Shown here one piece after another: positions 5,483 to 12,323 of a stretch of DNA of 64,000 nucleotides; position 1 is the stretch's first letter; every line of letters starts with the position of its first letter. Where the stretch lies: the NCBI GenBank assembly GCA_964386355.1, contig CAYLQQ010000002.1:45374-109373 (forward strand), written 5' to 3'. A model generated the notes under the pieces. It did not search any database, was not told the DNA's origin, and saw nothing but the letters and a program-made list of their open reading frames with translations. Source of the DNA: an uncultured Pseudomonadales bacterium (GTDB lineage Bacteria; Patescibacteriota; Microgenomatia; UBA1400; UBA1449). Position numbers and translations under genes: made by a program.

Positions 5483-7180
5483 ATGATAGAAGATATTAAA
5501 ATTGTATCAGGATCAAGTATCATTTATACTCAGAGCATGGTACTTTCTGACGATGCATTACTAGAACAGTCACTCCAGGATATTGGGATTAAATCTTACA
5601 AGGATCCCTTTGGTATGCCTGACACGTTTATATATGATCCCATAAAACCCATACAAGAAAAAGAAGGCAGCAAACGGCAAGTCCGCTTTACCCAACTGCT
5701 GAACTATTCGTTTCCAGAAGAGATAGAAGGTGGAGTAGCCGAGGTAGGGGAGGTGATATATATCGGCGATGGGGTGTGCCGGGTGGTCGGCTTATCGAAA
5801 GCTGAAATCGAAGATGTAATCAATGTTAAAACAGGTAAGGGTTGGGAAAAGGCACTCATCTTAGGTATAGAAGATACCCATATTGAGTCAGTTGTTCTTG
5901 GAGATTATTCAAATATCAAACAGGGCGACCAGGTAATCGCAACTAACTCAAGGTTAAAAGTGCCTGTTGGTAAAACTCTGTATGGCCGGGTAATTAGTCC
6001 TCTCGGAGTGCCTATAGATGGTAAGGGCAAGATTGAACCCGAAACGTACCGGGATGTGGAATTTCCAGCCCCATCAGTTATGGAGCGTGAGCCCATTTTT
6101 GAACCCCTAAAAACAGGTGAGATGGTTATAGATGCTACGATCCCTATCGGTTTAGGCCAGAGAGAATTGGTGATAGGAGACCGAAAAAGCGGGAAGAGCA
6201 GGTTTGCTATCGACATCATTTCAAACCAAAAAGGCAGAAACATGATCTGTGTATATGTTGGAGTTGGAATGCAGGCTGCTAAGGCAAAGGCTACGCTTGA
6301 GCTTTTGGAATCTAGAGAGGCCATGGATTACACCATCATGGTTGTATCTACTTCTGATGATCCTCCGTCACTACAGTACATCTCTCCATATGTAGGTACT
6401 GCCATAGCGGAGCATTTTATGTATGCAGGCAAAAATGTCTTGATTATTTATGATGATCTATCAAAACAAGCAAAAGCTTATCGGCAGGTTTCATTGCTGT
6501 TGAAACGCTCGCCAGGTCGAGATGCATATCCTGGTGATATCTTCTTTTTACATTCCAGGCTACTTGAACGCTCATCAAAAATGCATCGCAAGCTGGGAGG
6601 AGGTGCCATTACTGCCCTACCCATTGCCGAAACCCAGTCCGGTGATATATCTGATTACATCATCACCAATCTCATGTCTATTACAGATGGGCACATTTAT
6701 CTGGATGCAAATATGATGCATGAGGGAATTTTACCGGCAGTAAACTCACAAGCCTCAGTTTCCCGTATCGGGAGTAAGGTCCAGTCAAGTTTGCTAAAAA
6801 AGGTAGGAGAGCTTGCTTCGAGAGCTCTAGCCCGGTATGCAGAGTTAAAATCATTTGAAACGATTAACACCGAAGTTGCAGAGGAAACACTTCGGGATAT
6901 ACGGAGAGGCAAAAAAGTAAAGGAAATGTTAGCTCAAGTATCATCAGTAAATTATTCTACAGATGAGATAGTAGTTTTGCTCCATTTAGTAACTTCAGAT
7001 AAGCTGGAGATGATCGATCTTACAGACCTGTCTAAGTTTAAGCTGGAATTCCTGGAATACTATAGAAAAATTGTGACTCCTGAATTTAGAGGTAAATGTG
7101 AATCGTCAAAAGACCTCAAAGATATCGATGGGGAAGTGTCTGTTATGCTGGATAGGTTTTTAAAGCAACGTACAAGTTAG
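5483..7180 (+). CDS. atpA: F-type ATPase alpha subunit, with about 45-65 aa N-terminal extension
   Basis: P-loop GDRKSGKS, then DDLSKQAKAYRQVSLLLKRSPGRDAYPGDIFFLHSRLLERS, typical of alpha. The N-terminal beta-barrel core starts at EVGEVIYIGDGVCRVVGL, after extra N-terminal residues. Confidence 0.9.
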   Translation: MIEDIKIVSGSSIIYTQSMVLSDDALLEQSLQDIGIKSYKDPFGMPDTFIYDPIKPIQEKEGSKRQVRFTQLLNYSFPEEIEGGVAEVGEVIYIGDGVCRVVGLSKAEIEDVINVKTGKGWEKALILGIEDTHIESVVLGDYSNIKQGDQVIATNSRLKVPVGKTLYGRVISPLGVPIDGKGKIEPETYRDVEFPAPSVMEREPIFEPLKTGEMVIDATIPIGLGQRELVIGDRKSGKSRFAIDIISNQKGRNMICVYVGVGMQAAKAKATLELLESREAMDYTIMVVSTSDDPPSLQYISPYVGTAIAEHFMYAGKNVLIIYDDLSKQAKAYRQVSLLLKRSPGRDAYPGDIFFLHSRLLERSSKMHRKLGGGAITALPIAETQSGDISDYIITNLMSITDGHIYLDANMMHEGILPAVNSQASVSRIGSKVQSSLLKKVGELASRALARYAELKSFETINTEVAEETLRDIRRGKKVKEMLAQVSSVNYSTDEIVVLLHLVTSDKLEMIDLTDLSKFKLEFLEYYRKIVTPEFRGKCESSKDLKDIDGEVSVMLDRFLKQRTS

Positions 7181-7273
7181 TTCAAAGTACAAAATACATC
7201 AATATCTTCAATTATTAGTGGAAATTATTATTTTTATCGCAAACTTATAAAGCATTATTGACAAAAATAACGT

Positions 7274-8158
7274 ATGGCCAAAATAAATGAAATAAAGGAG
7301 CAGCAAATTGTGGTATCTGCAGTAGGAGAATTTTCAAATTCTTTGCAGCAGATAGCGACCATGCGGATGGTATCGTTGCGGAAAGTGGTTTTAGCAAGCC
7401 GGCGTTTTGTGGATGAAGCTACAGTTATCTTACGCGATTTAAAACGCGAACGGCAAGCACAGCTTATTGGAAAGCTAAAGAAAATAGATAAACGCTTTGC
7501 CAAACGGAGAACTCAGCGGGAAGCGATTATTGTTTTATCTTCCTACCAAGGGTTGTGTGGTTCTTATAATGTAGAAATATTTAACCGAATTGATAAGGTA
7601 CTTCCTGTACATCTAGAAGCTGATTATTTTGTTATTGGTTCAAAAGGTCAGGATTATTTTCGCAGGTTACTGCGTAAACATCCGAAACTCAATTTTTACC
7701 CCTATGATATTCCAGAGAGTGTTGGGATAGAGCACTTGCGCCGGCTTATAAATATGTTTCCTTACTATGATCATATTCACCTTATTTATTCCAAGTATGT
7801 GAATACAACTACCAGAGATGTTGTTTTTCTTGAATTAGTTGAACCTGCCTTTGAGGAGGATGAAAAGAAAGAAGAGCCAGAAAAAGAAGATAATAAAGGC
7901 GCATATATTTTTGAACCAGACCTTGAAGAACTTATTGAAAATGTAGCTAACAAATTACGGTATGCCCTTTTTCGGCAGCAAATATTGGATTCAAAACTAT
8001 CACTGTACAGTTCTCAAATGGTTGCTATGCAAAATGCGACGGATAATGCAAAGACACTTCTCAAAGACCTACAAATGGAATATAACAAAGCCCGTCGTAA
8101 GAATATTGATAAAAAAATACAAGAAGTCCAAGCAGGCCGAGCCCTGTGGGCAAATTAG
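7274..8158 (+). CDS. atpG: F-type ATPase gamma subunit
   Basis: N-terminal helix pattern IATMRMVSLRKVVLASRRF and C-terminal LQMEYNKARRKNIDKKIQEVQAG match the gamma termini; 294 aa. Confidence 0.75.
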   Translation: MAKINEIKEQQIVVSAVGEFSNSLQQIATMRMVSLRKVVLASRRFVDEATVILRDLKRERQAQLIGKLKKIDKRFAKRRTQREAIIVLSSYQGLCGSYNVEIFNRIDKVLPVHLEADYFVIGSKGQDYFRRLLRKHPKLNFYPYDIPESVGIEHLRRLINMFPYYDHIHLIYSKYVNTTTRDVVFLELVEPAFEEDEKKEEPEKEDNKGAYIFEPDLEELIENVANKLRYALFRQQILDSKLSLYSSQMVAMQNATDNAKTLLKDLQMEYNKARRKNIDKKIQEVQAGRALWAN

Positions 8159-8164
8159 CTATCC

Positions 8165-10555: not shown

Positions 10556-10557
10556 CT

Positions 10558-11973
10558 ATGGATCAAAATTTACTAGAGATAACAAAAAGAGAACTTGAGC
10601 ACATCGGCAGAATCGTTGCTATCCGTGGAGCAGTGGTTGATGTCCATTTTCCGTTACATGTCCCTGAGATTTATAATGCGCTTGAGGTGCAAAATACCAA
10701 TCGGCTTGTTCTTGAGGTATTTGAGCACCTATCAAATCATACAGTCCGTTGCCTATCGATGTCCCCCACATCAGGTTTGAGGCTGGGATTAGCGGTCAAA
10801 GACACGGGAGATTCTTTACGGGTTCCGGTAGGTGAATCCATGTTGGGCAGGATTGTGAATGTATTTGGCAAACCAGTTGACGGGATGGGGCCAATCATTA
10901 CTAAAGAAACCGCACCCATACATAAATCAAGTCCGTCATTTCAAGACGTAAAAAGTCCAACAGACATTGTTGAAACAGGCATTAAAGGAATTGATTTTTT
11001 AACTCCCTTTATTAAAGGAGGTAAGATTGGGTTTTTTGGAGGGGCAGGTGTTGGTAAGACTCAGCTGGTTACGGAAATTATTCACAATACTACAGTTAAA
11101 CATGGTACAAAATCCGTTTTTGGTGGCGTTGGTGAACGTACCAGGGAAGGAAATGAACTCTATCTCACTCTTGATGAAACTGACGTTTTGAAAAATGTTG
11201 CTATCGTTTTGGGTCAAATGAATGAGTATCCAGCCATGCGCTTTCGCGTCCCCCTTACTGCAGTTACGTTAGCTGAGTATATGCGTGATCTTACAGGCAA
11301 GGAAATTCTATTATTTATAGATAATATTTTTCGTTTTATTCAGGCTGGGGCTGAAATATCTACCGTTTTGGGTAGGATCCCGTCAGAAACCGGTTACCAA
11401 TCGACAATGAATTCAGAGCTAGGAGAAATTCAGGAGCGCATTGTATCGACGCCCGGTGGATCAATCACATCTGTGCAAGCAGTTTACGTGCCGGCTGATG
11501 ATTTTTCAGATCCAGCCATTCAAGCTATTTTTTCGCATCTTGATTCTGTTGTTGTTTTGTCACGTAAAATTGCCCAACAAAAGATTTATCCCTCCATTGA
11601 CCCACTACAATCAAGCTCAATTCTGGATGAACAGGTTTTAGGAGCAGAACATTTAAAAACACTCAAAGAGGCAACGCAAGTTTTGGAACGGTATCGGGCT
11701 TTACAAAATATCATTGCCATTTTGGGTGAGGGTGAGCTTTCTGAGGCAGAAAAAATATCTGTATCAAGAGCTAAAAAGTTAGTTAAATTTTTAAGCCAAC
11801 CGTTTTATACTGCTGAACAGTTTACTAATGTGCCAGGGGTGTATGTTGAACGCATGGATACTGTACGTGGGGTGCAAAAAATTCTTGCAGGAGAATATGA
11901 TGAGTTGTCAGACGACCCATTTTATATGATAGGGGGTATTGAGGATGCGGAAAAGAAAGCAAAAAGTGGTTAG
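10558..11973 (+). CDS. atpD: F-type ATPase beta subunit
   Basis: Walker [11 protein letters not shown], then [11 protein letters not shown] and DDFSDPA blocks. Confidence 0.92.
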
Positions 11974-12062
11974 GTGCCAAAATGCAGTTTACCAATGAAA
12001 ACAGCAAGGCCGCATTAATTTAATTATATTACTGCTCTGCACAATCTTTTTCATTCTTATTT

Positions 12063-12323
12063 ATGGCAGAAAACAAACCACAAGTTCACGTGATTATTGT
12101 TGATCCTGATAAGGTAGTATATGAAGGTGATGCGTTACGAATATTTGTCCCAGGAAAGATCGCAGAGCTTGCTTTGTTACCTGAACATACTCCTTTGTAT
12201 AGCGAGCTTACCGCAGGTCCAGTTATTGTAGAGGAAGTATCAGGAGCAAAGCAGGAAATTAAAATAGACGGGGGAGTGGCAAAAATGCAAAATAATGAAC
12301 TGCATATATTAATTGGATACTAA
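12063..12323 (+). CDS. atpC: F-type ATPase epsilon subunit, short form (86 aa, N-terminal beta-sandwich only)
   Basis: VHVIIVDPDKVVYEGDALRIFVPGKIAELALLPEHTPLYSELTAGPVIVEE matches the epsilon N-domain. The ORF stops after about 86 residues, so the C-terminal helical hairpin is absent. Confidence 0.75.
   Translation: MAENKPQVHVIIVDPDKVVYEGDALRIFVPGKIAELALLPEHTPLYSELTAGPVIVEEVSGAKQEIKIDGGVAKMQNNELHILIGY

Follow-up and report, generated by a model that had tools for sequence, protein, structure and literature searches.

The F1 genes of a canonical bacterial atp operon (atpIBEFHAGDC) run in the order alpha, gamma, beta, epsilon, and in N-ATPase operons small membrane-protein genes are interleaved with them. 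In the F1-like X0 ATPases of mycoplasmas (types 2 and 3), the genes for F1-type heads stand alongside genes for non-canonical membrane proteins (PMC3369863, PMC12994834), and a survey covering the candidate phyla radiation (CPR) states in general terms that in many CPR members the set of ATP synthase genes is minimal or incomplete (PMC10656485). Here, we analysed a 64,000-nucleotide stretch (the window; contig CAYLQQ010000002.1 of assembly GCA_964386355.1, positions 45,374 to 109,373) from an uncultured bacterium placed by GTDB in the Patescibacteriota, in which the F1 gene block holds a gene for a 796-aa polytopic membrane protein, hereafter X, between gamma and beta. X belongs to the GT-C glycosyltransferase superfamily, and it is probably a functional envelope glycosyltransferase that resides in the F1 operon and is co-expressed with it, not a subunit of the ATPase. 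The genes concerned are as follows (window coordinates).

5483-7180, + strand: atpA, F1 alpha, 565 aa as the longest open reading frame (ORF); TIGR00962 and Pfam PF00006, PF00306 and PF02874
7274-8158, + strand: atpG, F1 gamma, 294 aa; PF00231 over the full length, E=4.5e-44
8165-10555, + strand: X, homologue of GT-C-fold (ArnT/PMT-like) glycosyltransferases, 796 aa
10558-11973, + strand: atpD, F1 beta, 471 aa; TIGR01039
12063-12323, + strand: atpC, F1 epsilon, 86 aa; PF02823 over residues 9-83
12377-13018, + strand: FKBP-type peptidyl-prolyl isomerase with a lipoprotein-like signal, not part of the ATPase; PF00254, E=1e-34

An earlier reading of this DNA from its letters alone (the sequence-only reading) had described the five ORFs of the F1 block with the 796-aa ORF between gamma and beta, and their coordinates and strand were confirmed. 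Its gaps of 7 and 3 nt are corrected here to spacers of 6 nt (gamma stop at 8158 to X start at 8165) and 2 nt (X stop at 10555 to beta start at 10558). Because these spacers are too small for intergenic signals, X is very likely co-transcribed with alpha, gamma, beta and epsilon, while internal promoters are possible. A scan for promoter and terminator consensus sequences gave counts no higher than in shuffled sequence (18 versus 23.8 and 5 versus 5.9, respectively). None of the F1-block genes has a recognisable Shine-Dalgarno sequence in the 25 nt upstream of its start codon (window 5457-13084), so the translational coupling suggested by the sequence-only reading cannot be argued from the placement of such sequences.

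The F1 head itself resembles that of the canonical operon in gene order, in subunit scores and in motifs. Alpha (528.9 bits against a TIGR00962 cutoff of 484.45, aligned over residues 85-562) and beta (619.1 bits against a TIGR01039 cutoff of 462.85) both pass their equivalog cutoffs, and gamma (138.8 versus 194.45) and epsilon (55.5 versus 67.25) fall under theirs. Alpha contains the Walker A motif GDRKSGKS and the Arg-finger motif SVSRIG, and the catalytic GERTREG, the Walker B region and a DELSEED-like GELSEAE, the last in beta, were also found. With its nucleotide-binding and catalytic motifs intact, the encoded F1 head therefore looks catalytically competent. The alpha and beta subunits score below every cutoff of the NCBIfam models for the mycoplasma F1-like X0 (types 2 and 3) and N-ATPase systems: 273.6 versus 520 and 421 versus 570 for MSC_0619/0618, 343.4 versus 600 and 429 versus 850 for the gliding families, and 479.3 versus 750.5 and 527.5 versus 752 for the alt-F1F0 families. 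Those systems, unlike the F1 block of the window, contain no GT-C protein.

Family, fold and active-site signature of X

X has no match in NCBIfam or in Pfam, even at E<=10, and a PDB sequence search with a profile built from three X sequences gave chance matches only. Word-indexed homologue searches recovered only 3-9 proteins; among them were X itself, in an annotation of 745 aa, and a pair of homologues that share 42-44% identity with it. The public call (NCBI/Logan) starts at an internal Met and is thus 51 residues short. The homologues align from about residue 8 of the longer form, including a conserved YKSYN motif (window 8165-8317), and these alignments favour the start at 8165, which gives 796 aa, over the one that gives 745 aa. 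When 1.84 billion representatives were searched exhaustively with a profile, 467 relatives of X were found at E<=1e-3, mostly 750-1000 aa long and matched over their full length. Nine of ten relatives that were scanned match PF13231 (PMT_2) at 26.6-45.1 bits (cutoff 26.1), which X itself does not; a profile of 99 sequences matches yeast Pmt2 (6p25_B) at E=4.4e-5, and one X orthologue (P0006) is named 'glycosyltransferase family 39 protein' by NCBI.

The structural evidence points the same way. An AlphaFold2 (AF2) model from three sequences was unusable (predicted local distance difference test score, pLDDT, of 43), and the 99-sequence alignment was used instead, giving a model with a pLDDT of 93 and a predicted template modelling score (pTM) of 0.94. 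All 21 Foldseek matches of this model at E<=0.001 are GT-C proteins, with no ATP synthase subunit among them, and the model shows the polytopic membrane core and the conserved N-terminal transmembrane (TM) module by which the GT-C fold is recognised. The C-terminal domain resembles the C-terminal globular domain of AglB-S2 (3vu0). Topology was derived from the helices of the AF2 model combined with the positive-inside rule. About 17 TM helices are present in the high-confidence model, six of them forming an N-terminal module that is not in solved GT-C enzymes and the other 11 the GT-C core, in which TM1 lies at residues 217-237 and is followed by ten more TM helices and a long outside loop at 443-545. 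The C-terminal alpha/beta domain (about 651-796) is placed outside by the prediction, and the largest predicted cytoplasmic element is about 20 residues long (57-76), so that nearly all of the non-membrane mass of X is predicted to be outside the cell and away from F1. The sequence-only reading had counted at least 12 TM helices and a C-terminal soluble domain and had proposed a profile search and a topology prediction on 8165-10555; the count becomes about 17, and the two analyses indicate a GT-C protein whose soluble parts are predicted to face outward.

Three residues (D247, Y252 and W597) are invariant across the 99 sequences, and at least 90% conservation was found for G136, G160, P243, P337, K348, K390, P434, P528, L549, W588, Y598, Y703 and D715. 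D247 starts the outside loop that follows TM1, and this invariant Asp in the first predicted extracytoplasmic loop would be the acidic residue expected of a GT-C enzyme. The conserved basic residues K348, K390 and R497 would be compatible with binding of the phosphate of a lipid-linked sugar donor. Since this active-site signature is conserved, X is best read as an enzyme of the outer face. If it works like the GT-C enzymes of solved structure, its donor would be a polyprenyl-phosphate-linked sugar in the membrane, and X would pass the sugar via Asp247 to an acceptor at the outer face, either an envelope protein or a glycan, and the outside C-terminal domain may help in acceptor binding.

X differs from each of the characterised GT-C enzymes with which it was compared: (i) with ArnT (undecaprenyl-phosphate L-Ara4N transferase, GT83; 5f15/5ezm) it shares 12% identity, has about 200 extra N-terminal residues (the six TM helices) and a C-terminal domain of another size, and no arn-type genes lie near it; (ii) from the protein O-mannosyltransferases (PMT; GT39/PMT_2; yeast Pmt1/Pmt2/Pmt4) it is separated by scores under all Pfam thresholds, by a first loop reading A-Y-D-S-L-S, that is, Y-D-S in place of the D-E dipeptide, and by the absence of a MIR domain in the Pfam search; (iii) with STT3/AglB/PglB (GT66) it is about 10-14% identical, and the WWDxG hallmark of the oligosaccharyltransferases (OST) is missing from its C-terminal domain (658-796), its sole W-W pair (303-304) lying inside a TM helix. 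It is well supported that X is a member of the GT-C superfamily, as a GT-C_A-type homologue that is not assignable to PMT or OST. The 467 representatives delimit a GT-C subfamily whose members are about 800 aa long and carry a six-TM N-terminal extension. X is thus a new and divergent addition to a known superfamily, some relatives of X already bear the GT39 label, and a family and a likely activity can now be assigned to a protein that matches neither Pfam nor NCBIfam.

The same data bear on whether X could be an assembly or chaperone factor of the AtpI or Atp12 type, or an inactive pseudo-enzyme serving as a scaffold. AtpI-type small membrane proteins occur in atp operons, and the operon location of X is the one point in favour of such a role. 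X, however, is large, has no similarity to any assembly factor, retains the GT-C active-site signature that is conserved in its 99 homologues, and is predicted to turn its soluble parts outward, which together make this role hardly credible.

Recurrence and divergence of X within the F1 block

The check proposed by the sequence-only reading, namely whether homologues of X recur between atpG and atpD in other genomes, gave a positive answer, with X inside the F1 block in every related contig recovered: six related lineages have it between gamma and beta, and one has it between beta and epsilon. The gene orders are as follows.

L001, L004, L008 and L009: alpha-gamma-X-beta-epsilon-FKBP(-ABC)
L002: alpha-gamma-X-beta, the contig ending within beta
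L005 (JGI Ga0645783_06462): alpha-gamma-X-beta-epsilon-FKBP order in a frameshift-rich assembly
L010: alpha-gamma-X-beta-epsilon-FKBP order, gamma and X overlapping by 10 nt
L011: alpha-gamma-X-beta-epsilon-FKBP order
L012 (GCA_012798485.1): alpha-gamma-beta-X-epsilon, X being separated from its neighbours by 26 and 3 nt

The spacers on the two sides of X in the more distant loci are -10/+27 nt in L010, 46/15 nt in L011 and 26/3 nt in L012. The sequence-only reading had considered the case of a GT-C enzyme found at this place in only one genome; the GT-C part of it is true and the single-genome part is false. Two observations concern individual contigs. In L005, the block (6500-13200) is split into many short ORFs, which looks like the product of an error-prone assembly and not like pseudogenes. 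L004 (CAYXFC010000011.1) has F1 proteins about 87-92% identical to those of the window and the same gene order, and its Pseudomonadales label is probably wrong.

Sequence identity to the window proteins differs strongly between X and its neighbours.

L010: alpha 80%, gamma 74%, beta 86%, epsilon 70%, FKBP 44%, X 33%
L011: alpha 67%, gamma 71%, beta 85%, epsilon 59%, FKBP 41%, X 30%
L012: alpha 64%, gamma 67%, beta 81%, epsilon 55%, FKBP 52%, X 29%

Even in the closest relatives, where the F1 subunits are 87-94% identical, X is only 42-45% identical. Overall, identity ranges over 29-45% for X against 81-94% for beta, 64-91% for alpha and 67-90% for gamma, and by this measure X is the fastest-evolving gene of the F1 block. 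The operon-linked X proteins are one another's nearest relatives (27-58% identity, against no more than 27% with other family members), and because they are mutual nearest neighbours, their grouping is consistent with a single ancestral insertion. A recent horizontal insertion was rejected, as X shows no anomaly of composition (GC 0.38 against about 0.39) and the linked proteins form one clade.

Outside this clade no such association was seen. The relatives P0011 (Spirochaetota) and P0012 do not adjoin ATPase genes, and the neighbourhood of P0152, with two genes each of the PMT_2 and GT2 families, one GT4 gene and an ABC-2 exporter, is typical of a glycan cluster. One X orthologue (P0007) comes from Candidatus Beckwithbacteria, and we propose that X became resident in the F1 operon within a Beckwithbacteria-level clade of Patescibacteria and was then inherited there. 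That an envelope glycosyltransferase gene keeps its place within the F1 operon in a CPR lineage does not seem to have been described before: the one literature search aimed at it, on Patescibacteria with 'glycosyltransferase family 39', found no papers, and searches on Beckwithbacteria or CPR ATP synthase and on GT39 found nothing specific.

A conserved position next to the F1 genes is not specific to X. The FKBP gene, whose product carries a lipoprotein-like signal (...LVSC), follows epsilon in L001, L004, L005, L008, L010, L011 and L012, and a divergently transcribed gene for a secreted protein of 369 aa lies immediately upstream of atpA in each of the related loci. Since these two neighbours are equally syntenic, a conserved position alone does not single out X. 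As a candidate partner of the ATPase, X shows a neighbourhood that is conserved in one clade, including one shift of position, and not outside it, together with discordant rates.

These observations argue that X is not a subunit, because it evolves far faster than the F1 subunits, because its relatives outside the clade do not lie beside ATPase genes, and because its predicted soluble parts face outward and leave almost no cytoplasmic surface; it would accordingly be expected to have no physical association with F1. The idea of a novel membrane partner in a remodelled machine, put forward by the sequence-only reading, was therefore not borne out by the rates, the loci of the relatives, the outward topology and the equal synteny of the neighbours. 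Its other option, a glycosylation factor, fares better in part: the label fits the GT-C family of X, and co-transcription is likely.

A second ATPase cluster and its bearing on the role of X

The remaining ATPase genes of the window form a second cluster, in the canonical c-b-delta order, at 28848-32010.

28848-30809, + strand: secreted Big_1 protein with a C-terminal F-type c hairpin, 653 aa; PF02369 and PF00137
30886-31404, + strand: b-like subunit of the peripheral stalk, 172 aa, a single TM helix at the N-terminus, preceding delta
31432-32010, + strand: delta/OSCP, 192 aa; PF00213, E=2e-15

The genes of this cluster lie 16.5-18.6 kb downstream of the F1 block, which upholds the separation of b, delta and the c-like hairpin reported by the sequence-only reading and replaces its distance of 19 kb. 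For the b-like subunit, a member of the same sequence cluster (PIP53430.1) is annotated as 'F-type ATPase subunit b' of Candidatus Beckwithbacteria; together with the X orthologue P0007, this assigns the window to a Beckwithbacteria-type member of the Patescibacteria. The c-like hairpin occupies the last ~70 residues of the 653, matches PF00137 at 24.1 bits (cutoff 24), has a GRNP loop, and comes after some 560 extracellular residues that include Big_1 (bacterial Ig-like) domains; the gene stands in the place expected of atpE. In an ungapped alignment with E. coli c, Leu stands at the position of D61. The carboxylate is also missing in the 663-aa orthologues and in three (P0185-P0187) of four C-terminal c-like sequences recovered, the fourth (P0188) ending before that position. 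The fusion is kept as a 663-aa protein in L014, L017 and L018, and its hairpin is almost invariant.

No candidate for subunit a was found among the ORFs of the 64-kb window with at least three TM segments, which comprise X, ABC-2 permeases, SecD/SecF, an AI-2E transporter and a CAP-domain protein, and atpB may lie elsewhere in the genome. An RLFGN-type motif does not occur in any frame of the window, and no subunit a lies beside c-b-delta in the relatives. The 257-aa gene that follows delta there was rejected as subunit a, as it encodes a PHP-domain protein. In the relatives this gene stands between delta and greA (1907-2680 in L016); the window instead has tRNA-Glu(CTC) at 32012-32085 (- strand) and then about 340 nt of non-coding sequence before greA. 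X itself was likewise rejected as a divergent subunit a: it has no ATP synthase fold match, its intramembrane R117 is conserved among the closest relatives only, and its N-terminal module is found in homologues away from ATPase genes.

Compared with the canonical operon, the ATPase genes here are thus split into alpha/gamma/X/beta/epsilon and c-like/b/delta blocks 16.5 kb apart, a GT-C gene stands in the F1 block, epsilon is devoid of C-terminal helices, alpha has an N-terminal extension, the c-like subunit is joined to a Big_1 extracellular part and has no carboxylate, and subunit a is not in the window. Of the features that define a canonical ion-coupled F1Fo, the membrane-embedded carboxylate is absent from the c-like hairpin of the window and of its relatives, and a subunit a with the essential Arg was not found in the 64-kb window.

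Several observations weigh against reading X as an enzyme that merely resides among the F1 genes. It is unusual for an unrelated gene to be kept in an essential, stoichiometrically tuned operon over such divergence, and the fact that X stayed within the block after the shift seen in L012 hints at selection for co-expression. The recurrence sample is narrow, with about seven lineages, all metagenomic, and scans of genomes and metagenomes with X returned only close relatives. No polyprenyl-phosphate-sugar synthase or other glycan gene was found near X. The Fo part 16.5 kb away is abnormal in its Big_1 fusion, in its lack of the carboxylate and in having no subunit a in the window; because of the latter two features, it is possible that the ATPase is repurposed and is not a normal ion-coupled machine, maybe with non-canonical partners. 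The placement of X matters more in combination with this c-like subunit, carboxylate-less and extracellularly decorated, and with no subunit a in view.

One way to connect the two clusters is that X is a dedicated enzyme, made together with the ATPase, that glycosylates the Ig-like portion of the c-like fusion or another outward part of the complex. The active-site loop and the C-terminal domain of X are predicted on the outer face, the same side as the Big_1 part, which is placed outside by its signal sequence and by the N-out orientation of the c hairpin. Both features occur in samples from which contigs of the two gene blocks were obtained (Ga0210051, ERZ17912254 and Ga0100390), X stays within the F1 block despite its positional shift, and its closest sequence-level relative of solved structure is a protein O-mannosyltransferase. 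However, the c-like gene is 16.5 kb off in a separate operon, other secreted proteins are encoded nearer, including the conserved 369-aa one just upstream, and X has neither the MIR domain nor the DE dipeptide that are hallmarks of PMT. On balance, such a dedicated role is unlikely.

Alternatively, X could be a structural membrane part of a repurposed ATPase, a stator or anchor that replaces subunit a at a c-like ring that does not translocate ions. X is polytopic, is encoded in the F1 operon with tight spacing, and has a six-TM N-terminal module foreign to solved GT-C enzymes; the c-like hairpin has no carboxylate, no subunit a gene was seen in the window or beside c-b-delta in the relatives, and F1 heads with non-Fo partners have precedent (PMC3369863, PMC12994834). 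Against this, the N-terminal module and the overall architecture are common to P0011, P0012 and P0152, which are not linked to an ATPase, R117 is restricted to the closest relatives, and no ATP synthase subunit is among the structural matches. Identities of 29-45%, next to 64-94% for the F1 subunits, are unlike those of a tightly packed core subunit, and conservation of the catalytic Asp points to an enzyme. Moreover, as the analysis covered ~64 kb of the genome, atpB may lie elsewhere, and alpha and beta score as canonical subunits and below the mycoplasma F1-like cutoffs. We consider a structural role highly unlikely.

A broader version would hold that the ATPase of the Beckwithbacteria lineage is no longer ion-coupled at all, with F1, b and delta sitting on a decorated, carboxylate-less c ring without subunit a, and X as a dedicated component, either a stator partner or the enzyme that glycosylates the ring decoration. 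Taken as a whole, this is decidedly unlikely. If the ATPase were repurposed, X would be the obvious candidate partner, and a rotary ATPase would here have been put to a new use, one similar in kind to the mycoplasma F1-like X0 systems; it would be the second natural F1 motor coupled beyond ion translocation, after that of the mycoplasmas, and would occur in ultrasmall episymbionts. The reading of X as an envelope glycosyltransferase that is co-expressed with, and not part of, the ATPase remains the one we prefer.

The short epsilon and the extended alpha

Two F1 subunits depart from the usual size. Epsilon matches only the N-terminal beta-sandwich (positions 2-77 of the 130 in TIGR01216), and it is 86-87 aa long in every orthologous locus. 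The sequence-only reading had correctly given 86 aa with the beta-sandwich alone and had allowed for a C-terminal domain lost to a frameshift; this was rejected, as only 53 nt separate the epsilon stop from the FKBP start at 12377 and all orthologues have 86-87 aa. The short epsilon without C-terminal helices is a real, inherited trait of the clade and not an error. Two epsilon models in NCBIfam (NF009983 and NF009977) have no more than 88 and 102 positions, respectively, and short epsilons are therefore a known variety.

In canonical ATP synthase, the N-terminus of alpha binds delta. The alpha of the window aligns to TIGR00962 from residue 85, which corresponds to model position 24. In its orthologues the first residue is the one aligned with M19 (window 5537) and not with the first ATG, so the alignments indicate that M19 at 5537 is probably the true start of atpA. 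Of the 45-65 extra N-terminal residues given by the sequence-only reading, the extension itself stands and is conserved, and its size is about 43 aa from M19 or about 61 aa from the first ATG. The extension carries the motif LP(D/E)xF(V/I)(Y/F)DP, which is conserved in all lineages examined, and judging from these sequences the N-extended alpha is a conserved trait of the clade and not an error.

Flanking genes

The gene for the FKBP lipoprotein, likewise an extracytoplasmic protein, keeps a stable place next to the F1 genes. On the other side of the block, two secreted paralogues of 751 aa (1895-4150, - strand) and 369 aa (4229-5338, - strand) share a C-terminal region of about 190 aa at 42% identity. 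Neither has a Pfam match, and both could be surface glycoproteins that serve as substrates.

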